Assembly: GCA_012837335.1 (NCBI GenBank)
Contig: DURM01000019.1
Location: forward strand, 11,247-75,246
DNA length: 64,000 nucleotides
Direction: 5' to 3'
From: Bacillota bacterium
GTDB taxonomy: Bacteria > Bacillota > Limnochordia > Darwinibacteriales > DTU012
This document shows positions 122 to 47,324 of the stretch, piece by piece. The translations under genes were made by a program, and so were the position numbers. The notes under the pieces were generated by a model, which worked only from the letters and a program-made list of their open reading frames with translations, did no database searches and had not been told where the DNA came from. Every line of letters begins with the position of its first letter. Within the stretch, counting starts at the first letter, position 1.

Positions 122-778
122 CTATTTTCTCCGCGATTCTAACTCCTGCCAGATCTGATCTAATGCCACATTCTTTTCTACCAGCAAGACCAGCAGGTGA
201 TACAGTAAATCGCTCACCTCATAAATCAGCTCGCCGGGATCGGCATTTTTCGCTCCGATAATAACCTCAGCCGTTTCTTCCCCGACTTTTTTCAGGATCT
301 TATCAATACCCTTTTCAAATAAATAATTGGTATAAGAGCCGCCTTGAGGATTACGCTTGCGGTCTTCAATTAAAGCATACAGCTGATGCAGGATCTGTGA
401 GTTGTATACAGCTGCTGGGTCAAAAGTCCGTTCATGCTGCTCCCTGTTTGCCGCTGCCTGCACCGGATAATGAAAGCAGGAGCGATAGCCTTCATGGCAG
501 GCACCGGGACCAACTTGATCAACAGTAATCAAAAGACTGTCATAATCGCAGTCAGCTGTGACTTCCACTACCTGCTGCACATGCCCGGATGTTTCCCCTT
601 TCTGCCACAGTTGTTTGCGGCTGCGGCTGTAAAACCAGGTTAATCCGGTAGACAAGGTTTTATCAAGAGCTTCTTGATTCATATAAGCAAGCATTAAAAC
701 CTGACCGCTGCGATCCTGAATTATTGCCGGTATCAATCCGTTTTGATCAAACTTTAATTTTTGCTTCACTTTCGTCAC
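122..778 (-). CDS. hisI: Bifunctional phosphoribosyl-AMP cyclohydrolase / phosphoribosyl-ATP pyrophosphatase HisIE
   Basis: 218 aa. The N-terminal half matches the HisI cyclohydrolase (cysteine-rich, 'GETSGHVQQ') and the C-terminal half matches the HisE MazG-like fold. It is the last gene of the his cluster. Confidence 0.88.
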
Positions 779-780
779 CT

Positions 781-1503
781 CTAACTGCGGGCAGCCGCAA
801 CTGCTTCTGCCAAATCAATTTGATTTGTATACAAGGCCTTGCCGATAATTACTGCATAAACCCCATAGGATGAAAGGCTGCGCAGATTGCGAATGTCATC
901 AAGCGATGATACTCCTCCCGATGCAACGATTTTGATTCCTGCTTGTCCCACTTCTTTTAAAGCATCCAAATTAGGACCAGTCAGCATCCCATCCCGCGCA
1001 ATATCTGTATAAATAATCTCCTCAACTCCAAGAGTTTTCATCCGTTCAATAAGCTCCAGAGCCGGAACAGTAGTAGTTTCCAGCCAGCCTTTAACTGCCA
1101 CCATACCATTGCGGGCATCGATGCCCACCACAATCCGCTCTCCATATTTGGCAATCGCCTGTTTAAACCAATCCGGTTCATCTAATACAGCTGTTCCTAA
1201 TACCGCTCTGGCTGCTCCCGCAGCAAAAGCAGCTTCTACAGCCGATAGGTTCCTGAGTCCTCCTCCCAATTCAATCGGGATCGACACCGCACCGGCAATT
1301 CTTTCGATCACATCCAGATTCTGAGGAAAGCCATCGCGGGCTCCGTCCAGATCGACTATGTGCAGCATTTCAGCGCCGGCATCGGCAAAAGCCCGAGCTG
1401 TTTGGACAGGGTCCGAGCTGTAGACAGTTTTTTTCGCATAGTCGCCCTGCTCTAGGCGGACGCATTCTCCATTGATTAAGTCAATAGCGGGTATAATCAG
1501 CAT
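781..1503 (-). CDS. hisA: 1-(5-phosphoribosyl)-5-[(5-phosphoribosylamino)methylideneamino]imidazole-4-carboxamide isomerase HisA
   Basis: Begins '[22 protein letters not shown]' and contains 'HIVDLDGA' and 'GGGLR', all HisA hallmarks rather than HisF. The ORF-track N-terminal extension to 1566 overlaps hisB and is probably not translated. Confidence 0.85.
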
Positions 1504-1522
1504 CTGCATTTCGCTCCTATTT

Positions 1523-2131
1523 CTATAAATCCAATTTTCCTTTGGTCGAGAGGACTCTTTCCTCATCTGTAAGCATTACTGCTTGGCGCAGCGCGTGAGC
1601 CAGCGCTTTAAACAGCGCTTCAATAATGTGATGGCTGTTTGTTCCAGCCAGCTGCCGCGCATGCAGCGTCAACCCGGCATTTACAGCAAATGCGCGCAAA
1701 AACTCTTCGACGAGACAGGTATCAAACTGGCCTACCCGTTCCTGCGGCAGCTCAAGATTGTGAGCTAAAAACCCGCGCCCGCTGATATCCATCACTGCGT
1801 GAACGAGCGCTTCATCCATAGGAATACACGCATCTCCGTAGCGGGCAATACCTGCGCCATCACCGATACACTGCCGCAGCGCCTGCCCCAAGCAGATACC
1901 GACATCCTCCACTGTATGATGTCCGTCCACCTGCAGGTCTCCGGCGCAGGTCACCACCAAGTCAAATCCGCTGTGGCGGGCTAACGCTGTAAGCATATGA
2001 TCGAAAAAACCGATTCCAGTATTGATCTGATAAACACCGGTTCCGTCCAGATTCAGCTCAATCCTAATATCCGTTTCTTTTGTTGTCCGGGTAAATTTTG
2101 CCGCTCTTACCGCTTTATTCATGCTTGTCAC
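1523..2131 (-). CDS. hisB: Imidazoleglycerol-phosphate dehydratase HisB
   Basis: 202 aa with 'RTTKETDIRIELNLDG' and 'DGHHTVEDVGI' motifs typical of IGPD. Confidence 0.9.
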   Translation of the reverse strand: MTSMNKAVRAAKFTRTTKETDIRIELNLDGTGVYQINTGIGFFDHMLTALARHSGFDLVVTCAGDLQVDGHHTVEDVGICLGQALRQCIGDGAGIARYGDACIPMDEALVHAVMDISGRGFLAHNLELPQERVGQFDTCLVEEFLRAFAVNAGLTLHARQLAGTNSHHIIEALFKALAHALRQAVMLTDEERVLSTKGKLDL

Positions 2132-3488
2132 CCGCCTCCAAATCTTGCAGCCGGATTCTAATCGCGTTACCGTGGGCTGTTAAACCTTCCCGATCAGCAA
2201 TCTCCACTGCTTGCGGTCCAAATTTCTTCAAGCCCGCTTCTGAGTAATAAATAACGCTGGATTTTTTCACAAAATCATTGGTTGTCAATGGAGAGGCAAA
2301 ACGGGCTGTACCGTTTGTGGGCAGAATATGATTAGGACCAGCGATATAATCACCAACCGGTTCCGCCGCATATTTACCGAGGAAGATAGCCCCTGCGTGC
2401 TTGATTCTGCCTACTAACTCCCACGGGTTTTCGACCAGCAGTTCCAAATGCTCAGGCGCAAATACATTTGCAAGCTCAACTGCTTGATTCAGGTTCTCAG
2501 TAATAACAATTAGCCCCCAGTTTTCCAGGGCAACTGCTGCAATATCAGACGTATCGAGCGAACTCAGCTGCATTTCAATCTCATCTTGCACAGCAGCGGC
2601 ATATGCTTCACTGGTTGTAATTAGGGCCGCTGAGGCTTCCCAATCGTGTTCTGCCTGGGACAAAAGATCCGCAGCCGCATAAGCAGCCGGCACTGAACCG
2701 TCGGCAATTACTAAAATCTCACTGGGTCCGGCCAAGGCTTCGATCCCAACGCGGCCGTAAACCATCTTCTTGGCCAAGGTAACAAACAAATTACCCGGTC
2801 CCACTATTTTATCGACCCGCGGCACTGTTTCTGTGCCGTAGGCTAATGCTCCAATTGCCTGTGCACCGCCGGCTTTCAGCACCGCATTTACTCCGCAGCG
2901 TTTAGCAGCTACCAAAAGGTGCGGATCAATCTCTCCGTTCCGCAGCGGTGTAGCCATAATTATCTCGCTAACCCCTGCAACTCGGGCGGGAACCGCGCTC
3001 ATCACCACCGAAGAAATCAAGGGCGCATTGCCGCCGGGAACATAGATGCCAACTCGGTCTAGGGGAGTAACCTTCTGGCCGAGAATAATGCCATCGGCTT
3101 CGGGAGCAAACCAGCTGTTCTCCACTTGTTTCTGATGGTACTTTCTCACATTGATTATGGCTGTATCTAGAGCTTCGAGAAACTGGGGACTAACCATCGT
3201 TTCTGCCTGCTCAAACTCGTGCTTTCCGACAAAAAGCTGCTCTGAGGTTAATTTTTGCCCATCAATTTTATCTATGTAGCGCAGCAGTCCCGCATCGCCT
3301 TCCCGTTTAATATCACCCAGAATTACAGCTACCGATTCTTGAGGAGTCAGCGCTTTTCCAAAAATCTGCTTAGTGCGCTCCATCCCCGCCGGATTAACCG
3401 GCACCTCATCTAGATCCGGGCGAACCACCAGTTCCCGAACTGCTTCCAAAGATGGAAAATCTTTGACATTAACGATGCGCATTTTCAA
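2115..3488 (-). CDS. hisD: Histidinol dehydrogenase HisD
   Basis: 457 aa, conserved HisD core ('ALAYGTETVPRVDKIVGPGN', 'SQAEHD', 'HILPTNGTARF'). Confidence 0.92.
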   Translation of the reverse strand: MKMRIVNVKDFPSLEAVRELVVRPDLDEVPVNPAGMERTKQIFGKALTPQESVAVILGDIKREGDAGLLRYIDKIDGQKLTSEQLFVGKHEFEQAETMVSPQFLEALDTAIINVRKYHQKQVENSWFAPEADGIILGQKVTPLDRVGIYVPGGNAPLISSVVMSAVPARVAGVSEIIMATPLRNGEIDPHLLVAAKRCGVNAVLKAGGAQAIGALAYGTETVPRVDKIVGPGNLFVTLAKKMVYGRVGIEALAGPSEILVIADGSVPAAYAAADLLSQAEHDWEASAALITTSEAYAAAVQDEIEMQLSSLDTSDIAAVALENWGLIVITENLNQAVELANVFAPEHLELLVENPWELVGRIKHAGAIFLGKYAAEPVGDYIAGPNHILPTNGTARFASPLTTNDFVKKSSVIYYSEAGLKKFGPQAVEIADREGLTAHGNAIRIRLQDLEAGDKHE

Positions 3489-4113
3489 TCACTCCTTCAA
3501 GCGCGCCAACCAGCTCAACAATGGCTTCCCGCTTAGTTTTCAAACTGATCCGGTTAGCAATCAACCGCGCAGTACTCTCCATAATTGTATCCAGCACCAC
3601 CAAACCGTTTTCAACCAAGGTGCGCCCTGTTTCAGTAATATCCACTACTGCCTCGCTTAAACCAACAATCGGTCCTAACTCTATTGAACCGTTCAGGGGA
3701 ATGATCTCTACTTGAATCCCATGACTGTTGAAAAACTGATTGGCAGTATTGGGATATTTGCTGGCTACACGGCTGTTAAAATCTAGTTCCCGCACACTGG
3801 TAATATTGAGACTTTCGGGAACTGCTACAACCAGCTTGCAGTACCCGTATTTTAAATCCAACAGCTCGGCTACATCTTTATCGCTCTCGGTTAAGGTATC
3901 CTTGCCCACAACACCCAAATCGGCAGCTCCATATTCCACATAAGTGGGCACATCAGCCGGTTTGGCGAGAATAAACTGTAATCCGGCTGCGGGAACATCA
4001 ATCACAAGCTTACGGGTTTCCTGCAGCAGAGCATCGCAGTCGTACCCAGCTTTGCTTAGGAGTTCGAGAAAGGAATCTAATAACCTTCCTTTGGCTACCG
4101 CTATACTTAACAT
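3469..4113 (-). CDS. hisG: ATP phosphoribosyltransferase HisG, short form
   Basis: 214 aa short-form HisG ('LSIAVAKGRL', 'LILAKPADV...DLGVVGKD'). Short-form HisG requires HisZ, which is encoded immediately upstream. Confidence 0.9.
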   Translation of the reverse strand: MLSIAVAKGRLLDSFLELLSKAGYDCDALLQETRKLVIDVPAAGLQFILAKPADVPTYVEYGAADLGVVGKDTLTESDKDVAELLDLKYGYCKLVVAVPESLNITSVRELDFNSRVASKYPNTANQFFNSHGIQVEIIPLNGSIELGPIVGLSEAVVDITETGRTLVENGLVVLDTIMESTARLIANRISLKTKREAIVELVGALEGVIENAHR

Positions 4114-5315
4114 CCCCCAGCCCCCTCACAACCAGCTGGCATAATAGTATGAACAGCGCCAGCTTCGACAATAACTACCCTGCTGTATCCCTTTTGCTGG
4201 GCGTATTCGATGGCATCAGTCTCAGAAAGACACTGAACATCCACCTCAACTCGTGTTTTCCTGCTTCTTTCGGCTGCCGCAAATCTCAAAGCATCGGGCC
4301 AGGAGCGAGGCAGAACCAGGATTCCATTTGGTGCGGTATCACAACGCTGACCCTGATTCTCCAGCACCAGCATTAAACGCTCTAACCCGAGAGCAAAACC
4401 TACCGCCGGCAGACCGCTGCCGAAGCGATTTCCGAGCTGATCATAGCGTCCTCCGCTGCAGATAGTAAAGCCAAGACTTGGCACATATCCTTCTAAAACC
4501 ATGCCGGTATAATAATCAAGTGATTTGACGATGCTGAGGTCAATATAAATCTGATCCCTGAGACCATAGGCATCAAGATATGAGTATATTTCTTTTAAAT
4601 TGGCAACTGCGCTGCGGGCTCGGGGATTTTCCGTGCTGTAATAGGCCTGTTCTAAAAGGGACTCCCGACCCCGAAAATGCGGCAGTTTGAGAAGCAGTTT
4701 TTTAGTCTGCTCTGACAGATCGCTTTCAGCTGTTAAAGCTTTCAGCCCGACTAAATCTTTTTTAAGCAGAAGCTGCCAAAAGCGCTTTCGCAGCGACTCC
4801 AACTCACATTCTTCCAGAATGCCGTGGATATACCCGGTGTGTCCTAAATCCAAGTTAAAGTTGTTTACTCCCAGTTCATTGAAAACAGTAACTGCCAAAG
4901 CCGCAGCTTCTGCATCTGCTGCTGGTGAGCTGCTGCCGATTAATTCCACGCCGGCTTGATAAAATTCACGCTGAAAACCGACCTGGACATCATCATAACG
5001 AAACACATTGGCCAGATAGCTGAGGCGGAGCGGCTTTGGTTCATCTTTCAGCCGAGTTGCCACCATTCGGGCAATGGGAGTTGTTAAATCCGGACGCAGC
5101 ACCAGCAGCTCGCCATTGTGATCAAAAAACCGATACGTCTGCTGAGTTTCAGCCCCGTTTTGAACTAAAACATCGTGGAATTCAAAAGTAGGGGAAATCA
5201 CTTCCTGATATCCCCACTTATTAAACACGGTCCTAATTTTCTGTTCTAACTCTAATTTCCACTCTGCATCTGCCGGTAGAAAATCCTTTACACCCCGCGG
5301 TGTCCGCAGATCCAT
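4107..5315 (-). CDS. hisZ: ATP phosphoribosyltransferase regulatory subunit HisZ (HisRS paralog)
   Basis: 402 aa class-II aminoacyl-tRNA-synthetase-like protein ('MDLRTPRGVKDFLP...', 'YRFFDHNGELLVLRPDLT'). It has no anticodon-binding domain and sits directly upstream of short hisG. Confidence 0.85.
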   Translation of the reverse strand: MDLRTPRGVKDFLPADAEWKLELEQKIRTVFNKWGYQEVISPTFEFHDVLVQNGAETQQTYRFFDHNGELLVLRPDLTTPIARMVATRLKDEPKPLRLSYLANVFRYDDVQVGFQREFYQAGVELIGSSSPAADAEAAALAVTVFNELGVNNFNLDLGHTGYIHGILEECELESLRKRFWQLLLKKDLVGLKALTAESDLSEQTKKLLLKLPHFRGRESLLEQAYYSTENPRARSAVANLKEIYSYLDAYGLRDQIYIDLSIVKSLDYYTGMVLEGYVPSLGFTICSGGRYDQLGNRFGSGLPAVGFALGLERLMLVLENQGQRCDTAPNGILVLPRSWPDALRFAAAERSRKTRVEVDVQCLSETDAIEYAQQKGYSRVVIVEAGAVHTIMPAGCEGAGGC

Positions 5316-5327
5316 CCATCCCGCCTC

Positions 5328-6761
5328 CTATTCCCATTCAATGGTTGCCGGTGGCTTGGAGCTAATATCGTAAACCACACGATTCACGCCCTTAACTTCC
5401 CGCAGAATTCGGGAGCTGACCCGCTCAAGGAGATCATACGGCAGACGGACCCAGTCTGCAGCCATACCATCAACACTATTAACCGCCCGTAAAGCAACCA
5501 CATGGTCATAAGTGCGATCCTCTTGATCCATACCCACCGTTCTCGTATCGGTCAGCACAGCCAGCGCCTGCCAGACTCTGCCATACCATCCGGAATTCCG
5601 AAGTTCTTCAATAAAAATCGCATCTGCTTCGCGCAGTATCTCTAACTTAGCTTCAGTGATCTCACCGATGACTCGGACCGCTAAGCCTGGTCCTGGGAAA
5701 GGATGGCGCATCACAATCGAATCAGGCAGACCCAGCTGTCTGGCAACCATCCTCACTTCATCCTTAAAAAGCTGTCGCAGCGGTTCGATCAGCTCGAAAT
5801 TGAGATCGTCCGGAAGACCGCCTACATTGTGATGCGATTTAATCACTGCGCCTTCACCAATCCCGCTCTCAATTACATCTGGATAAAGCGTACCCTGCAC
5901 TAAAAAATCAACGCTGCCGAGTTTTTTTGCTTCTTCCTCAAAAACCCGGATGAATTCGGTACCAATAATCTTGCGTTTGGTTTCAGGATCGGCTACACCT
6001 TTCAGTTTCGCCAGGAACCGCTCACCTGCATCGACTGCAACAAGATTTAAATCAAATTCCCTGCTGAAAAGATCCACAACCTGCTGCACTTCGTTTTTCC
6101 GCATCAAACCGTTATCCACGAAGATGCAGGTCAGCTGAGAACCGATTGCTTTATGAACTAATACTGCAGCTGCTGAAGAATCGATACCACCACTTAAGCC
6201 GCAGACAACTTTTTTATCCCCAACCTGAGTGCGGATTGACTCAATCATCGAGTCAACAAAGCGATCCATGGTCCAGGTTTGCGTGCAGCCGCAGATGCGC
6301 AGCACAAAATTCTCAATAATTCTAGCTCCTAAATCTGTTTCCACAGCGGCGGGCTCCAGCTGCACCCCATACAGCTTGCGTTCCCGATCCTCCAGCGCGG
6401 CAAACGACTCATCTTCGTTTAACTCACTGCAATCCCAAAATAGTTCTGACTGCAGGTCTGCAGTTGTTGTAACACTGTCACCCAGCTGTACAGCCATCAA
6501 TTCCATACCTAGACCAAGGCCCAAAATCGGGATATTCAGCTCATACAGCTCGGGTTTAAGCTCCATTCTGTCCAGCGCATCCGGAGTTGATACTCCCGAT
6601 AGGATAATTCCCAGCGGTTTTTTATCAGCAATCTCCTTTACATCGGTATTCCAAGGCAGAATTTCACTGTAAACCTGGAAACTGCGAACTTTCCTGGCTA
6701 GATCCTGACTATAATGGGTTCCAAAATCCAGGACTAAAATCGTTTCCATATCAGTCACCAT
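5328..6761 (-). CDS. guaA: GMP synthase (GuaA) with degenerate class-I glutamine amidotransferase domain
   Basis: The C-terminal ATP-pyrophosphatase and dimerisation domains are canonical ('GLSGGIDSS' P-loop, '...KPPATIEWE' end). The N-terminal GATase domain aligns to GuaA, but the catalytic Cys is replaced ('ILGLGLGMELMAVQLG' versus 'GVCYGMQ') and the 'QFHPE' His/Glu motif reads 'QLEPA'. Confidence 0.85.
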   Translation of the reverse strand: MVTDMETILVLDFGTHYSQDLARKVRSFQVYSEILPWNTDVKEIADKKPLGIILSGVSTPDALDRMELKPELYELNIPILGLGLGMELMAVQLGDSVTTTADLQSELFWDCSELNEDESFAALEDRERKLYGVQLEPAAVETDLGARIIENFVLRICGCTQTWTMDRFVDSMIESIRTQVGDKKVVCGLSGGIDSSAAAVLVHKAIGSQLTCIFVDNGLMRKNEVQQVVDLFSREFDLNLVAVDAGERFLAKLKGVADPETKRKIIGTEFIRVFEEEAKKLGSVDFLVQGTLYPDVIESGIGEGAVIKSHHNVGGLPDDLNFELIEPLRQLFKDEVRMVARQLGLPDSIVMRHPFPGPGLAVRVIGEITEAKLEILREADAIFIEELRNSGWYGRVWQALAVLTDTRTVGMDQEDRTYDHVVALRAVNSVDGMAADWVRLPYDLLERVSSRILREVKGVNRVVYDISSKPPATIEWE

Positions 6762-6767
6762 CCTATT

Positions 6768-7313
6768 TTAACTATCCTGATACGCAGAAGGAGAGAGAAT
6801 CGCCACATAAGGCAGCGAGCGGTACTGCTCCGCGTAGTCAATACCATAACCCACTACAAACTCATCGGGAATGGTAAAGCCGAGATAATCCGCCCGCTCA
6901 TCTACCTGGCGCCGATCCGGCTTATCCAATAGAGCGCAGACCTTAAGGCTTGCCGGATTGCGGGATAAGAGATTATTTTTTAAGTAATTCAGCGTTAAGC
7001 CTGTATCCACAATGTCTTCCACAATCAAAACATGCCGTCCCTCGATTGGCAGATCCAAATCTTTAAGGATGCGAACTGCGCCGGAAGTTTGGTAAGAACT
7101 GCCGTAACTGGAAACTGCCATAAAGTCAACATTGATCGGAATCGAAACCTTTCTAATTAGGTCGGAAAAGAAGCAGATGGCCCCTTTTAAAATGCCGACT
7201 AAAACCAAATCTTTTCCTTGATAATCTTGAGATATCTGGGCACCCAGCTCCGCAACGCGGCTGCTTATCTGCTCTTCACTCAATAAAATTTCTTGAATCG
7301 GATTCATACGCAC
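6768..7313 (-). CDS. hpt: Hypoxanthine phosphoribosyltransferase
   Basis: 181 aa with the PRPP-binding motif 'VLIVEDIVDTGLTL' and overall Hpt similarity. Confidence 0.85.
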   Translation of the reverse strand: MRMNPIQEILLSEEQISSRVAELGAQISQDYQGKDLVLVGILKGAICFFSDLIRKVSIPINVDFMAVSSYGSSYQTSGAVRILKDLDLPIEGRHVLIVEDIVDTGLTLNYLKNNLLSRNPASLKVCALLDKPDRRQVDERADYLGFTIPDEFVVGYGIDYAEQYRSLPYVAILSPSAYQDS

Positions 7314-11784: not shown

Positions 11785-12245
11785 GCTTGTACCACCACTT
11801 TTAGCTCCGAAACCAGCTGTTCATAACGCTGTCCGTGAGCTGTAAAGATAAATTCCCGCTGATCTTCAGCGGTTTTCCTGATTTCTATCTGCAGATACTC
11901 AAGGGGCAGATACTCCTGTACAGTATTTCCCCACTCGATCAAACAGACTCCGCTGCCATAAAAGTACTCATCATAACCAATATCCTCTAACTCATGGGGT
12001 TCAATGCGGTATACATCAAAATGATAGACTGGCAGCCTGCCGTCATATTGATTGATTAAAGTAAAAGTGGGACTGGTAATCAGGGTTTCATCAATGCCCA
12101 GTCCGATACCGACACCTTTAACAAACTGAGTTTTACCTGCGCCCAAGTCTCCTTCAAGACTGATTACATCGCCTGGCTGGAGCAAACGGGCTGTTGTTTC
12201 TCCTAAAGCTTGGGTTGCTTGAGGTGAACCTGCAGTATATCTCAC
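11781..12245 (-). CDS. tsaE: tRNA threonylcarbamoyladenosine biosynthesis ATPase TsaE (YjeE)
   Basis: 154 aa with P-loop 'GDLGAGKTQFVKG'. Confidence 0.85.
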   Translation of the reverse strand: MRYTAGSPQATQALGETTARLLQPGDVISLEGDLGAGKTQFVKGVGIGLGIDETLITSPTFTLINQYDGRLPVYHFDVYRIEPHELEDIGYDEYFYGSGVCLIEWGNTVQEYLPLEYLQIEIRKTAEDQREFIFTAHGQRYEQLVSELKVVVQA

Positions 12246-13264
12246 TTGTCGACAATCCTCTCAAATTTAGCTTCTGATAAATCCGCCACAATCTCCCCTA
12301 CCACTCGACCGCGATGATTGCGGACCAGCTGGGGACGATAAGCTTCTAAGATATTGCTGTCACCAATATAGCCTAGTTTATCCAAAATGGCAAGCAAAAC
12401 TGCGGCCACAGCCCTGCTGCTGCCATCTTCAATTTTAAGAGCCAAACCCCAGCCGCGATCCGGCAGTGCCAAGCAGTAGACCGCTTCCGCACCAGATTTA
12501 GCAACCAATTTATATTGTAAATAAGCACGCATTAAGTCCGCTGTCAATTCTCCCGTTCCTGCCGTTAAAATGGGATAGCTGCGCATCGCTTCGGTAATTC
12601 TTTGAACAGCCCCAGCTCGCTCTGGGCTTAATCCACTGGGATCAGCCAAACGTGCCCAAGCCAACGCCATATTATAGATAGAAAAACCAAAAACCGGTAC
12701 TCCGCAGCCGTCAATACCCAGAGCGATCTGTTCCCGCTCAACACCGCAGAAATCACTAATATAACTTAACACCAGCTGCTGCAGGGGATGATCTATTTCG
12801 ATATAATTGTTCAAATCCCAATGATGATACATGGATAAAGCCAGCATCCCGGCGTGTTTGCCTGAGCAGTTGTTGTAGAGCTGGTTTGGTTTTTCTCCTG
12901 CTTGGATCAGTGCTTGCAGTGACTTCTGGTCCCGCGGCGGATGAACTCCGCACTGGAGAGCATGATGATCTAAGCCGAGCTTGTTTAAAATGCTGGTTAC
13001 TGTCTGAATATGCTCCGGTTCACCACTGTGGGAGGCGCACATCACCGCTAGCTCTGCATCAGTAAAGCCAAAACGGTCTGCGGCTCCTGATTCCACAATC
13101 GGAAGGGCTTGAATCGGTTTGGCTGCAGAGCGAAAAAAAGTCTTTAAATATGGATCACCTTGGCTGGCAGCGATTCTGCCTTGAGCATCTACGATAACCC
13201 AACTGCCTCTGTGAACACTTTCCACAATTTGGCTGCGATATACTTTTGCCACAACACTTGCCAT
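12242..13264 (-). CDS. Asparaginase-II family protein (PF06089-like)
   Basis: About 340 aa. Family call made from memory of overall similarity ('CSGKHAGMLAL', 'HSGEPEHIQ'). Start set at 'MASVVAKV'. Overlaps tsaE by 4 nt. Confidence 0.45.
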   Translation of the reverse strand: MASVVAKVYRSQIVESVHRGSWVIVDAQGRIAASQGDPYLKTFFRSAAKPIQALPIVESGAADRFGFTDAELAVMCASHSGEPEHIQTVTSILNKLGLDHHALQCGVHPPRDQKSLQALIQAGEKPNQLYNNCSGKHAGMLALSMYHHWDLNNYIEIDHPLQQLVLSYISDFCGVEREQIALGIDGCGVPVFGFSIYNMALAWARLADPSGLSPERAGAVQRITEAMRSYPILTAGTGELTADLMRAYLQYKLVAKSGAEAVYCLALPDRGWGLALKIEDGSSRAVAAVLLAILDKLGYIGDSNILEAYRPQLVRNHRGRVVGEIVADLSEAKFERIVDK

Positions 13265-13288
13265 TATTTTCCACCTTTCCCGGATCAA

Positions 13289-17261: not shown

Positions 17262-18584
17262 CTAGAATTTAACAGCAATACCTGCTTTAGCAGTAGTACC
17301 GGTTTTGATAGATTCATCAGCAAATTTACCACCAACGTGGGTGATGCTCAAGCCGATACCGTTAGGTGCATCGTATGCAGCGCCAACTTCATAACCAATT
17401 GTTTCAAGGTCAGAAATTGTAACTTCGCTGTTAAGTTCAAGTCCTTTAACTGCAGGAATTAAGCCCAGTTTAGTGTCAGCACCTACAGTGTGGATCAAGC
17501 CGTTACCAGGTGTCCATTCACCATTGTATTTAGCTGTAACATCTAAACCGTCAATTACTGCGAATGCTCGATCGACTGCTAGATTTGTGCTTTGAGTTTT
17601 AATACCTTCGTTAACTGCTAATACTGTTTCAACATTAACGTTGAATCCTTCTACATTGGTTGCTGCGGATAATACAGCTTCATCAAACATCTGATCATAG
17701 TCAGCTGCTAACTGAATACCAGAGTGCTCAGCAGCGATACCTGCGTAGAAACCGCTGTCTCTGCGGCTGTCTTCATGAATCCAGTTCTGGCCGCGATCTT
17801 TCTTAGCTTTATCAGCGATATATGCCGGTTTCCATTCTTCAGAAATAGCTTTGTAACCACCGTGAACGCTTACGTTATCCATTACTTGATACTGAGCGCC
17901 AACAGCTAACATATGGTGAATAGGTCTTTCTTCGCCCTCTTCAACGTCTTCCAGATCTAATTGTGCTGCAACTGAACCACCAAGTACAAGGTCTTTCATC
18001 GGACGAACTGCACCGTCAACTACCATGTGAAGTGAATCCCAGTCATAGATAACTGCAGTACCAGCCGCCAGATTGTCCATGCTCATGTCAGCGCGGATAC
18101 CCTGGATCGATTTGTGTTCTTCAGTAGGAATACCATAGAAACCATTAACTGCAACTGGACCAATGTTCATGCCGCTGACACTGATACCATATTGATTTTT
18201 AACTGTGCTGAATGGGCCATAGTCAATGTCAAGGCTGCCGAAGCGAGTAGTTGCTTCAGGTCCGCCGTGCCAGAATGAACCATCAGTTTCGATATAAGCT
18301 TTCTTCAGAACAAGATTGTTTGCATCTAATTTCAGGTCTAAACCTTGGCTGTTTTTATCGCCAATACCAAATTCAACAACTGCTCTGGTTTTGTCATCTG
18401 CTGTGTCTAAACCGAAGTTCAGATTCAGCTCAGAAGTCGGTTTAGTTGTGATTGTGCCATCTAAATCTCTGTGCCACTCCAGATTTGTTTTCAAGGAACC
18501 ATCAAAGTTGATACCGGCTGCGAAAACAGATCCGGATACTGCTAATACAAGAGCTAATGTTAAAGCAATAATAGATTTTCTCAT
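17262..18584 (-). CDS. Putative outer-membrane beta-barrel protein / porin
   Basis: Start at 'MRKSIIALTLALVLAVSGSVFA' (Sec signal, RBS GGGGGA). The sequence is rich in alternating hydrophobic residues and Gly, Asp and Asn, and it ends in '...GIAVKF'. A terminal Phe is the usual C-terminal beta-signal of proteins inserted by the BAM outer-membrane assembly machinery. No S-layer-homology domain. Confidence 0.55.
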   Translation of the reverse strand: MRKSIIALTLALVLAVSGSVFAAGINFDGSLKTNLEWHRDLDGTITTKPTSELNLNFGLDTADDKTRAVVEFGIGDKNSQGLDLKLDANNLVLKKAYIETDGSFWHGGPEATTRFGSLDIDYGPFSTVKNQYGISVSGMNIGPVAVNGFYGIPTEEHKSIQGIRADMSMDNLAAGTAVIYDWDSLHMVVDGAVRPMKDLVLGGSVAAQLDLEDVEEGEERPIHHMLAVGAQYQVMDNVSVHGGYKAISEEWKPAYIADKAKKDRGQNWIHEDSRRDSGFYAGIAAEHSGIQLAADYDQMFDEAVLSAATNVEGFNVNVETVLAVNEGIKTQSTNLAVDRAFAVIDGLDVTAKYNGEWTPGNGLIHTVGADTKLGLIPAVKGLELNSEVTISDLETIGYEVGAAYDAPNGIGLSITHVGGKFADESIKTGTTAKAGIAVKF

Positions 18585-19020
18585 TTGGAATATTATCCCC
18601 CTTAAATCTGTTAAATCATTTTCATTTAAGCTTTGTCTTTTAGAAAAAACACTTGAATTTACGATGTCTAAGTCCGAATGAAAGAAGCATTGCCTGTGAG
18701 TATCCATGTTTCCTCATTGTCAATGTTCCTTCTGCTGCTTTGACTGGAACAGTGAGTTCAGCGACTAGACATGTCTTGCTGCATCATTCTCACTCCGTTT
18801 CTCGGTCTGCTTACCGGGGGACTGTCACCTCCTTTCTTGGTCTGCCGAAAAAAAGAGTCGAATGCGCAACACTAACTAACATAAGTTAGCCAAGCTGCAA
18901 TGAAAACTTGTTCATTACAACTACGCTATAAATATTCTCTTTCTTGGACATAAGTCCTGCTAGAAAGCTTAATGAACTTTTTCCCATTTCTGGAAAGCTC
19001 TGCAGTAAATATGCAGTCCG

Positions 19021-23854: not shown

Positions 23855-23877
23855 GATTATCGAGGAGGTATTTGTCT

Positions 23878-24639
23878 ATGAAAAAAACTATGTTCATTAT
23901 GCTGATCAGTTTACTGCTGATTTCAGCGACCGTATCAGCCCAAGTAAATCACCGGATTACATTTGGAGCCGATATCCAGATCAATGCGCTCACCTTTAAT
24001 CCTTTTTTTAAGCCATCGGAAGAAGGGAGCAAAAACTCCAAACAATTCAACACCTGGCAGCTGATGCTGTCCGGAAAAATTGAACCGGCAGCAGACTTAC
24101 TGCTTTTGTTTGATCACGGATTCGGCTGGGCTAACCAATTTAACAACACTTTTGAAAACGATGAGTCAATAACCAACAATGTTACTAAAGCTGCGCTGAT
24201 GTATCAGTTCTATAACGATACTAATCTGCAGATTTACGGCGGACTCGGGTATAATTTTGTTCGCTACAACTTCCATAACCTAATCTACCATGACGATGCG
24301 CTGAAAAAGAATGCTAAGCTGGATGGAAGTGGTTTTTTGGCCGCTTCCCAAGTTAATTTCATTGTTGCCGACAATCTGACTATCAAAGCTAACATTGAAG
24401 CTGCACCTTTTTATACCTGGGTGTATGAAGCAACTGAAAGCGGTGACGACATCAAACGAGGCTCTGCTTATTTCTACCGCCTGACCGCTGAGTACGATAT
24501 CAATCATGCATGGTCTGCCAAGATTGGCTACAGCGGCAGCCGGTCCAATACCAGCGAATTTACTTTGAATGACTACACTGTGCCTGAGATTACCTTCACC
24601 CAAGGCGGTCTCCAAGTGGGAGCAACTTATAAATTCTAA
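23878..24639 (+). CDS. Small outer-membrane beta-barrel protein (OmpW/OmpA-barrel-like)
   Basis: Signal peptide 'MKKTMFIMLISLLLISATVSA' (RBS GAGGAGG). Amphipathic beta-strand pattern rich in aromatic residues and Gly. C-terminal '...GATYKF' beta-signal. Confidence 0.5.
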   Translation: MKKTMFIMLISLLLISATVSAQVNHRITFGADIQINALTFNPFFKPSEEGSKNSKQFNTWQLMLSGKIEPAADLLLLFDHGFGWANQFNNTFENDESITNNVTKAALMYQFYNDTNLQIYGGLGYNFVRYNFHNLIYHDDALKKNAKLDGSGFLAASQVNFIVADNLTIKANIEAAPFYTWVYEATESGDDIKRGSAYFYRLTAEYDINHAWSAKIGYSGSRSNTSEFTLNDYTVPEITFTQGGLQVGATYKF

Positions 24640-46196: not shown

Positions 46197-47324
46197 TTAT
46201 ACCGATGCTGCATTGTGCCCGGCGATGTAACTAGCATCAAGCAGCGCCCATAGTCCTCCTGTCACTAAAGAGTGGCCGCCAAGCATTATCGGTATCGGCG
46301 CACTGCAGGCCGCCGCCGTGAACTCCCTCAGTCCGGGGTGGGATATCTGGTCAACCATGCCTAAATCAGAATAAAACCGATCACTCTGCGATAAGTCCCA
46401 GTTCCAATGGGCAAACATGATTCTGGAATCAAGCACAGCTCCATGGCTGATTTGGCCGAGGAATCTAAAAAACTGCTCATAACCATAGGAAACCATCATT
46501 TCTCCAAATAGAGACTGTGCCTCTCCTCGCACATCCCTTCCCAGCGCTTTCATACCTCGTTCCTCCGAGTAGAGCCGGATGCGGCAGCGGGTCAGCTCAT
46601 CGAGAAGTTTAAACAAGGAGGAATTAACCCGGCCGTAAACCAGCAGTTCACCGTGAAAATCTCCCATCACTTGTTTTATTTTATCACATCGAGTCAGATC
46701 GATATCCATTTCCGCCACAGCCCGCTTGGTGTGTTCACCCACATGGGGGTGGCATGCTAAAATCATCAGATCACTTGGTGTATCAATATCAAACTGCAGA
46801 CCGAGAGAACGCTGCAGGGGAATAAATCTGAGATCCGCCTGCTGCACCAGAAGCTGCGGCAGCGTATTATCAATTGCAGGCAGATCAACTTCTGCGAGCG
46901 CTGACCCAGGAGATAATCCGACCAGGTCAGCTGAGTAATAGTTGTTAGCAGTTACGACTCGATCGTGCTGTTCCAGCAGTCTGCGGATATTCCTGAGTTC
47001 ATAAGCAGAAATAAGGGGAGCTGCCGCTCCCCCCATGTATAAAACCTTGTTCAACTTTCTCTGTTTTACAACTCTGAGCAGTTCTTTCCCAAAGTGAAAC
47101 TCCTCTGTCACCTGTGGGTGAAACTCAATTTCTACTGGATATCCTGACGCTGCTTCTGCTAAATCTTGATAGGAGGTCATGATTACTATCCGCTCAAAGC
47201 CAGCCGCTTGAGCCTTGCAAATCTGATCAATTACTATTGCTTTTCGCACCCGGCGCATCATTTCTTCTGGTTCGCTGGATACGGATCCACCCTCGAAAAT
47301 AACTAAGGTTACAGAAGAGTCCAT
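46197..47324 (-). CDS. Hypothetical protein; N-terminal half resembles MobA/CofC-like nucleotidyltransferase fold
   Basis: 375 aa with no confident family assignment. '[19 protein letters not shown]' and 'DIDTPSDL' resemble guanylyltransferase (CofC/MobA-like) motifs. The C-terminal 170 aa are unassigned. Confidence 0.3.

Follow-up and report, generated by a model that had tools for sequence, protein, structure and literature searches.

A GMP synthetase with a catalytically dead glutaminase domain in Darwinibacteriales, a candidate for ammonia-dependent GMP synthesis

The stretch analysed here (the window: 64,000 nucleotides of contig DURM01000019.1, from a Bacillota metagenome-assembled genome) carries on its minus strand an ortholog of guaA, the gene for guanosine monophosphate (GMP) synthetase (GMPS), in which the class-I glutamine amidotransferase (GATase) domain has lost its catalytic triad and the synthetase half is preserved. 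An identical protein of 477 amino acids (aa) is deposited publicly as HHT36083.1 / MFB5067638.1 under 'Candidatus Wallacebacter cryptica', which is placed in the order Ca. Darwinibacteriales by NCBI and in the class Limnochordia, order DTU010, family DTU012 by GTDB. The likely start of the gene is M5, at position 6749, which gives 473 aa, since homologs open with METI... and independent gene calls also arrive at 473 aa. The gene and its parts, in the order of the protein, are as follows, where ATPPase stands for ATP-pyrophosphatase and XMP for xanthosine monophosphate.

5328-6761, minus strand: guaA ortholog, 477 aa, with a pseudo-GATase domain lacking the triad, an ATPPase domain and a dimerisation domain
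6468-6749, minus strand: retained first half of the GATase domain, residues 5-98 (beta1-alpha1-beta2-alpha2-beta3...beta4-helix), kept across the whole erosion series described below and predicted to be folded
6681-6695, minus strand: interface motif of helix alpha1, R23-K24-V25-R26-S27, matching (K/R)(K/R)XRE, which contacts ATPPase helix alpha12
6588-6599, minus strand: degenerate oxyanion-hole loop S55-G56-V57-S58 (canonical SGGP), from the motif table and alignment
6501-6521, minus strand: former nucleophile elbow G81-L82-G83-L84-G85-M86-E87 (canonical G-[IV]-C-Y-G-M-Q)
6399-6467, minus strand: eroded middle of the GATase domain, residues 99-121, with in-frame deletions of ~35 aa; the lowest-confidence part of the N-domain model
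6348-6371, minus strand: remnant of the His/Glu motif, Y131-G-V-Q-L-E136-P-A138 (canonical YGVQFHPE)
5610-6266, minus strand: intact ATPPase domain, residues 166-384, its key residues invariant in a 47-sequence alignment
6174-6194, minus strand: P-loop S190-GGIDS-S196 of the ATPPase domain
5865-5879, minus strand: alpha11 motif D295-VIES of the ATPPase domain
5811-5840, minus strand: lid K308-SHHNVGGLP of the ATPPase domain
5751-5765, minus strand: alpha12 motif K333-DEVR of the ATPPase domain
5331-5609, minus strand: dimerisation domain (residues 385-477), with the XMP-binding signature K469-PPATIEWE at its C-terminus

Profile searches divide the protein into two unequal halves. The full-length GMP synthase model NF000848 is matched at 656.5 bits (cutoff 400), the synthetase-half model TIGR00884 (guaA_Cterm) at 496.3 bits (cutoff 338.75), and the dimerisation domain PF00958 at 137.4 bits over positions 1-92 of 92. 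The glutaminase-half model TIGR00888 (guaA_Nterm) reaches 110.1 bits, under its cutoff of 172.15 and split in two pieces, and the Pfam GATase model (PF00117) aligns to residues 9-99 only, corresponding to profile positions 1-95 of 190. In public records, the triad-less proteins HHT36083.1, MFB5067638.1, NLM69158.1, HHX01666.1 and MGB4266321.1 are all named 'glutamine-hydrolyzing GMP synthase', because the full-length model is passed through the synthetase half alone; on this evidence, the name would be wrong for a GuaA without a triad.

At the residue level, we aligned the protein to the enzymes of E. coli (1GPM), A. baumannii (7SBC) and C. burnetii (3TQI) and to 108 canonical homologs. The position of the nucleophile Cys is occupied by Gly83 (codon GGT at 6513-6515), and the original prediction, made from the letters of the window, was off by one residue in placing a Leu there. 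The conserved Gln of the GMQ motif has become Glu87, and the reading of YGVQFHPE as YGVQLEPA came out the same in our alignments, with the triad His replaced by Glu136 and the triad Glu by Ala138. The WMSH(G/T)D strand has been removed by in-frame deletion, and the N-domain measures 158-162 residues up to the conserved Trp163 versus 194-196 in canonical enzymes, so that the domain is indeed shorter, as had been predicted, by ~33-37 aa, which is slightly under the 'about 40' first given. Because Cys, His and Glu are kept in all of the canonical homologs from the same search (108/108), the loss of the triad lies far beyond chance variation. As a candidate for a shifted nucleophile we considered C111 (LFWDCSEL), the lone Cys of the eroded part, and rejected it: canonical enzymes have Leu at the aligned position, the clade does not conserve the Cys, and the multiple alignment with homologs holds no Cys/His/Glu triad at displaced positions. 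What survives of the domain is selective, with D12, Q19, A22, R23, R26, Y31, E33, P36, G51, I52 and P78 invariant in both the clade and the canonical enzymes, and with R23 and R26 of the alpha1 motif invariant in the 47-sequence alignment. Judged from profiles and alignments, the class-I glutaminase domain of this GuaA is catalytically dead, which bears out the central claim of the original prediction.

An error of sequencing, assembly or gene calling would be the simplest way to dispose of these observations; the source is a metagenome-assembled genome, annotated starts differ (477 versus 473 aa), and a sequencing error at the Cys codon had been named beforehand as something that would undo the prediction. 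We regard the chance of such an artefact as negligible. Both GLGLGME and VQLEPA are also present in the homologous proteins P0001, P0121, P0123, P0124 and P0127, and P0126 differs by one flanking residue (FLGLGLGME); these sequences come from independent assemblies of four sources (NCBI, JGI, ENA and Logan), with P0123 found on 66 contigs. The codons of guaA are clean, with neither frameshift nor stop, the changes comprise many substitutions and in-frame deletions rather than one error, and related species stand at different stable stages of the same erosion.

The synthetase half, in turn, is intact, as had been predicted, with the SGGxDS, DxxES, KSHHNVGG, KDEVR and KPPxTIEWE motifs invariant across the 47 sequences. 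Nei-Gojobori estimates against a 76%-identical relative (P0002, genome L082), for which synonymous divergence (dS) is saturated, gave nonsynonymous divergence (dN) of 0.10 for the ATPPase domain, 0.084 for the dimerisation domain, 0.34 for the retained N-terminal half and 0.41 for the eroded part of the N-domain; dN/dS of the synthetase and dimerisation domains is ~0.05 (ATPPase ~0.056), and the proportion of nonsynonymous differences (pN) in the N-domain, 0.27-0.32, lies well under saturation, though dS is saturated. Among pairs with 85-90% identity in the synthetase, the N-domain is 74% identical in canonical enzymes versus 56% in triad-less ones, and in the cluster of P0002 the N-domain has a 2.7x higher amino-acid polymorphism per site. 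Near-identical strains yielded no unsaturated dN/dS, as just 2 nucleotide differences separate them. The glutaminase domain is under relaxed, non-neutral constraint and the synthetase is strongly constrained; since purifying selection on the synthetase is strong, GuaA is still in use.

Structurally, we modelled the protein with AlphaFold2 from the 47-sequence alignment, which includes canonical homologs. The 477-aa model has a predicted local distance difference test score (pLDDT) of 85.4 and a predicted template-modelling score (pTM) of 0.84, and its predicted N-domain runs beta1 (7-12)-alpha1 (17-27)-beta2-alpha2-beta3...beta4 (79-83)-helix (84-96), with Gly83 at the former nucleophile elbow; residues 1-98 and 121-160 reach a pLDDT of ~75-95, the least certain stretch being 100-120. 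The model resembles two-domain GMPS (7sbc/1gpm; template-modelling score TMq 0.84-0.87) more closely than synthetase-only subunits (0.57) or the rotated state of the Plasmodium falciparum enzyme, PfGMPS (0.64). A related form of 420 aa was modelled at pLDDT 86.7, with a four-strand stub (residues 3-79) folded confidently and directly joined to the linker helix, and it too scores higher against two-domain GMPS (TMq 0.84-0.88) than against the other states (0.64-0.66). The inter-domain interface of GMPS is described by the motifs (K/R)(K/R)XRE in alpha1, DXXES in alpha11 and KD(D/E)V(K/R) in alpha12 (PMC10526850), for which the window GuaA has RKVRS, DVIES and KDEVR, respectively; a CATH-based analysis further indicates that contact with the GATase domain stabilises the N-terminal part of the lid. 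In the models, the sub-domain that survives would be exactly the one that carries interface helix alpha1. The remnant fits the description of a pseudoenzyme domain, in that its catalytic residues are gone and its predicted fold and purifying selection on it are kept.

Evolutionarily, the window GuaA is one stage in a graded series, to which its nearest homologs, themselves short or triad-less, also belong. P0012 (514 aa) is full length and has lost the Cys alone (His or Asn there), with HPE kept, and P0018 (498 aa) is like it with the domain slightly shortened; P0002 (501 aa) has Gly at the Cys position and has lost both His and Glu; the window GuaA (477 aa) combines Gly83, Glu136 and Ala138 with the deletion of ~35 aa; erosion then increases stepwise through P0003, P0028 and P0013 (454, 446 and 424 aa), and in P0008, P0017 and P0020 (419-420 aa) the second half of the GATase domain is wholly gone. 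The 419-420 aa forms are annotated Limnochordia, with one cluster member on 368 contigs, and members of the series as a whole cover both families of the order on hundreds of contigs. Degradation has reached all four glutamine-site motifs throughout the series, HPE in the two longest forms excepted, and every member keeps the N-terminal stub, predicted to be folded, with interface helix alpha1. In every assembly and every family member, even the shortest of 419 aa, the open reading frame (ORF) is uninterrupted, and erosion ends exactly at the boundary between stub and synthetase.

We considered a single origin of the dead forms and found no support for it: neighbour-joining (NJ) bootstrap support for their monophyly is 2/300, canonical sequences interleave with them, and the deep nodes are unresolved. 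The same bootstrap unites the window GuaA with P0002 in 300/300 replicates and the 420-aa forms in 292/300. We searched 1.84 billion cluster representatives exhaustively by profile and classified the best 150 hits (P0182-P0331), which come from many unrelated, mostly metagenomic lineages where they lack the Cys. Among them are 14 full-length proteins without the Cys, 13 with Gly in its place (in P0282, one of the 13, a Cys follows at the next residue, which may be an alignment shift), together with many 390-460 aa forms whose N-termini no longer match the GATase profile and which are scattered among canonical forms. Close to the clade, the 514-aa protein P0021 has Gly at the Cys position and Arg at the His position, its remaining motifs being intact; identical in three independent assemblies (P0021/P0557/P0558), it looks, from its sequence, like a very recent inactivation. 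A Gly codon is one transversion away from TGY, and Gly is the residue best suited to the strained backbone of the nucleophile elbow, and the recurrence of Cys to Gly would fit selection that keeps the fold while the chemistry goes. A genome-collection scan with the eroded-clade alignment, using patterns derived from the synthetase, returned among the matches listed only canonical GuaA from unrelated phyla.

Pseudoenzyme domains often turn into regulators, and the series bears on whether this one has acquired a new function, be it a new substrate or nucleophile or a regulatory or ligand-sensing role, such as ammonia gating or metabolite binding. The purifying selection that still acts on the remnant, and the repeated replacement of Cys by Gly and not by random residues, both speak for such a change. 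We consider it improbable nonetheless: the residues of GMPS that make up the XMP, ATP and lid motifs are unchanged, by which XMP chemistry is almost certainly retained; the remnant has shrunk to a stub of ~80 residues in the most abundant family, which argues against a new ligand site in the glutamine pocket; and the alpha1 interface is the sole conserved surface feature.

Beyond guaA itself, three neighbouring genes bear on where the amino group of GMP, or GMP by another route, might come from (IMP, inosine monophosphate).

6768-7313, minus strand: hpt, hypoxanthine phosphoribosyltransferase (TIGR01203, 229.8 bits), with a gap of 6-18 nt to the downstream guaA; it opens a second route to IMP/GMP, by salvage
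12242-13288, minus strand: Asparaginase_II, an ammonia-releasing amidohydrolase (PF06089, 404.5 bits), adjoining the C26 gene
13289-14005, minus strand: peptidase-C26/PuuD-like class-I GATase with an intact Cys-His-Glu triad (AICRGCQ, VQWHPE), the sole other class-I GATase in the window

In every clade genome examined the order is (C26-type GATase)-(Asparaginase_II)-tsaE-tsaB-rimI-tsaD-groES-groEL-hpt-guaA-hisZ-hisG-hisD-hisB-hisA-hisIE-...-pcrA-ligA, with guaA triad-less. Related genomes with a canonical GuaA of 509-514 aa (L088, L092 and L093 among them) have guaA at the same position, and because canonical guaA occupies this locus in relatives, the window gene is a positional ortholog and not a paralog. 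The short intergenic gaps, 6-18 nt between hpt and guaA and 12 nt between guaA and hisZ, suggest that hpt, guaA and hisZ are co-transcribed; promoter and terminator scans gave counts at chance level, and an Rfam scan of the whole window found no match, purine riboswitch and T-box included.

The original prediction had offered, as one of three consequences of a dead glutaminase, that a separate subunit of the GuaAA type might supply ammonia, as in Archaea. Two-subunit GMPS does exist, with subunits that associate only transiently, and a glutaminase docking in trans and channelling ammonia could be a GuaAA-like GATase or the C26 gene, which has its triad, lies 6.5 kb from guaA and is syntenic in related genomes; the gene in question could also sit elsewhere in the genome, beyond the 64 kb searched. 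No GuaAA-type gene (NF001975) is present in the window, where the best other ORF, the C26 gene, scores 33.7 bits against a cutoff of 198, and none like it occurs in the ~20-kb contexts of eight related genomes. A homolog search with the N-terminal remnant alone returned short GuaA fragments only, with no stand-alone remnant or partner. The C26 gene, for its part, is a weak candidate for the trans glutaminase: it also lies upstream of tsaE in L092, a genome with canonical GuaA, which weakens it as a specific partner, the tsaEBD/rimI and groESL genes lie between it and guaA, and by inspection its N-terminal region has no docking motif of the (K/R)(K/R)XRE type. The stub in cis, moreover, is predicted to hold alpha1 at the docking surface, where it would block a GATase arriving in trans, and in a survey of 730 genomes GuaA never occurs with a remote glutaminase (PMC3376133). 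Taken together, we judge a two-component enzyme unlikely. The neighbouring Asparaginase_II gene is confined, at this position, to the main eroded subclade (the window, L082, L090 and L091) and is absent there in L085-87 and L092.

The other consequence raised beforehand was that salvage through hpt might dominate, and in its extreme form guaA would be a decaying relic that no longer contributes, with GMP made from guanine by Hpt. In line with this, hpt lies directly upstream of guaA, biosynthetic erosion is seen nearby in a his operon without hisH and hisF, and several auxotrophies have been reported for the organisms. Salvage is plausible as a parallel route, but it leaves the loss unexplained: the adjacency of hpt and guaA is ancestral and present with canonical guaA too, and the synthetase is under purifying selection. 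A decaying pseudogene is ruled out by that strong constraint, with dN/dS of ~0.05 and invariant catalytic residues in a clade whose synonymous sites are saturated; the reading frame has remained intact down to the 419-aa forms, and erosion halts where the synthetase begins. We hold it very improbable that guaA is a relic. Adjacency to hpt was also tried, and rejected, as a correlate of glutaminase loss: canonical P0005, which lacks hpt, had suggested it, yet the canonical relatives P0006, P0009 and L093 have the hpt-guaA pair, and hpt is directly upstream of guaA in 3/4 canonical relatives with a readable upstream region.

The his operon beside guaA (window 122-5315, minus strand) reads hisZ-G-D-B-A-IE, without hisH and hisF, which are exactly both subunits of the glutamine-dependent imidazole-glycerol-phosphate synthase. 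The same hisH/hisF-less operon is found throughout the clade with triad-less GuaA (L081-L087, L090 and L091) and with the canonical P0005. An ancestral-type relative, L093, has hisB-hisH-hisA-hisF-hisIE, and because hisA sits between the two genes, two separate excisions of hisH and hisF are needed. Other sister operons differ again, with L094 lacking hisA, and L092 carrying a hisF::hisE fusion and lacking hisA and hisI. A HisF search for a relocated hisF in the clade gave no named hit from these organisms, most hits being unnamed.

Elsewhere in the window, a 255-aa ORF (23872-24639, plus strand) gives a weak match to the outer-membrane beta-barrel family PF13505 (E 8e-7, barely over the cutoff); a real match would be consistent with a diderm envelope, an uncommon trait in Bacillota that has been discussed for Limnochordia. 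The 481-aa ORF at 17262-18707 (minus strand) has no Pfam hit at E<=1e-5 and no NCBIfam hit, and the 375-aa ORF at 46197-47324 (minus strand) no Pfam hit at E<=1e-5. GC skew on the plus strand is negative in every 2-kb bin (about -0.06 to -0.19) and ~90% of long ORFs lie on the minus strand, which places the whole window in a single replichore where genes strongly favour one strand.

Returning to guaA, the reading that we favour, and consider rather probable, is that the window GuaA is an ammonia-dependent GMP synthetase in which the dead domain survives as a structural scaffold. Mechanistically, the ATPPase domain would adenylate XMP, and free cytoplasmic NH3 would attack the adenyl-XMP intermediate to give GMP; glutamine would not be hydrolysed, as the nucleophile, the His/Glu pair, the oxyanion loop and the substrate-site strand are all gone. 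The stub formed by the first GATase half is predicted to keep helix alpha1 docked on alpha11/alpha12 and the lid, and would, once docked, probably stabilise the lid region of the active site. The state of the sequence, its conservation, the pattern of selection, the distribution across the order and the predicted fold are what the analysis shows; that NH3 is the donor in the cell, that the stub serves as a scaffold and that ecology lies behind the loss are what we infer from it. The order corresponds to the former, uncultured 16S clade MBA03, which is reported to have a wide ammonia tolerance, and >99% of samples with >0.1% Darwinibacteriales are anaerobic digesters (PMC12663870). We propose that loss of the glutaminase is tolerated because the lineage lives almost only in such ammonia-rich digesters, where selection to keep glutaminase activity would be relaxed. 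Total ammonia in digesters commonly ranges from tens of mM to hundreds at pH 7.5-8, and NH3 crosses membranes; with ammonia this abundant and membrane-permeant, an ammonia-fed GMPS would be physiologically plausible there.

Biochemically, all GMPSs studied accept exogenous NH4+. The ATPPase subunit of M. jannaschii (MjATPPase) alone makes GMP from NH4Cl; its Km is 4.1 mM, and its kcat matches that of the reaction with glutamine. Elsewhere, the Km for NH4+ is 10.8 mM in P. falciparum, 26 mM in M. tuberculosis, 103 mM in E. coli and 174 mM in human. In PfGMPS, the mutation C89A (also C89A/C113A) abolishes glutamine-dependent activity and leaves NH4Cl-dependent GMP formation in place (PMC9312489), the very behaviour predicted for the window GuaA, whose nucleophile is likewise removed; the mutants, however, are laboratory point changes in a complete domain, whereas the loss in Darwinibacteriales is natural, spread over many sites, accompanied by deletions and order-wide.

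Compared with canonical bacterial GuaA (EC 6.3.5.2; 1GPM, 7SBC), the window protein shares the three-domain order, the predicted fold and the genomic position, and reaches ~60-70% identity over the synthetase and dimerisation domains, where no catalytic motif is missing, but it lacks the triad, the GGP loop and the WMSH strand, its GATase domain is ~35 aa shorter, and it scores below the guaA_Nterm cutoff. It has all the synthetase features of a glutamine-hydrolysing GMP synthase and lacks the glutaminase ones that define it, and glutamine-dependent GMP formation is predicted to be absent. With the archaeal two-subunit GMPS of M. jannaschii and P. horikoshii it shares the synthetase fold (TMt 0.90-0.93), and there the synthetase unit is able to work alone on ammonia, as MjATPPase does; archaeal GuaAB, though, is ~300 aa long, has no GATase remnant and has a dedicated GuaAA partner, whereas the window GuaA carries a remnant of ~160 aa fused in cis. 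An accepted precedent within the superfamily is NadE of type N, an ATPPase amidotransferase that is naturally glutaminase-free and uses NH3 (PMC3376133); it belongs to another family, its domain is absent entirely and the lost partner is of the nitrilase type, whereas the window GuaA keeps a class-I GATase pseudo-domain. In function the nearest analogue is ammonia-dependent NadE; by homology, canonical GuaA and archaeal GuaAB stand closest. On sequence grounds, as in the functional class of ammonia-dependent ATPPase amidotransferases (EC 6.3.4.1-type activity), the window GuaA is a synthetase without a functional cis glutaminase and with no partner in the regions examined. In the 730-genome survey, every GuaA (100%) was a glutaminase fusion and there was no 'No Glnse' class for it, against 44% of NadE without glutaminase (PMC3376133). 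Searches of full-text literature and GMPS reviews, a coverage outside which most subscription journals lie, turned up no account of a naturally triad-less GuaA.

Several points weigh against ammonia as the donor and the stub as a scaffold. The Km for NH4+ of canonical bacterial GMPS is high (26-103 mM), and physiological adequacy would depend on intracellular ammonia or on a lower Km in the window GuaA. Synthetase substitutions specific to the dead forms, as might be expected of adaptation to NH3, were sought and rejected, all candidates being shared with the nearest canonical relatives. Docking of the stub is an AlphaFold prediction that is biased towards the canonical arrangement by the canonical homologs in the alignment. 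The search for a stand-alone glutaminase covered 64 kb of a ~2.4-Mb genome, the paper on the organisms infers nitrogen from organic donors including glutamine, without examining GuaA, and the link to an ammonia-rich habitat is a correlation. Direct use of ammonia is still the best supported of the three consequences first proposed, because biochemical precedent, an ammonia-rich niche, order-wide erosion and the predicted position of the stub at the docking site all point to it.

If this holds, an order-wide discarding of glutaminase chemistry would break the rule for GMP synthetase, a textbook glutamine amidotransferase, and overturn the view of GuaA as always coupled to a glutaminase; the triad-less proteins already contradict current public annotation. 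Uncultured lineages would then have followed a repeated path, with a fold-preserving change of Cys to Gly followed by erosion to an alpha1-bearing stub, and the series would serve as a natural experiment on the structural contribution of the GATase domain to the synthetase (alpha1 / alpha11-alpha12 / lid) and on how far a domain can shrink. More tentatively, guanine-nucleotide synthesis in the whole order may depend on free ammonia, its sole GMP synthetase being one with a pseudo-glutaminase domain, which would help to explain both its confinement to digesters and its resistance to cultivation, and triad-less GuaAs, having arisen repeatedly, may constitute an unrecognised natural class of NH3-dependent GMPS. 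As MBA03/Darwinibacteriales are abundant, uncultured indicator organisms of biogas digesters, an obligate need for high ammonia (or guanine) would be a hint for their cultivation and a possible reason for their restricted niche.

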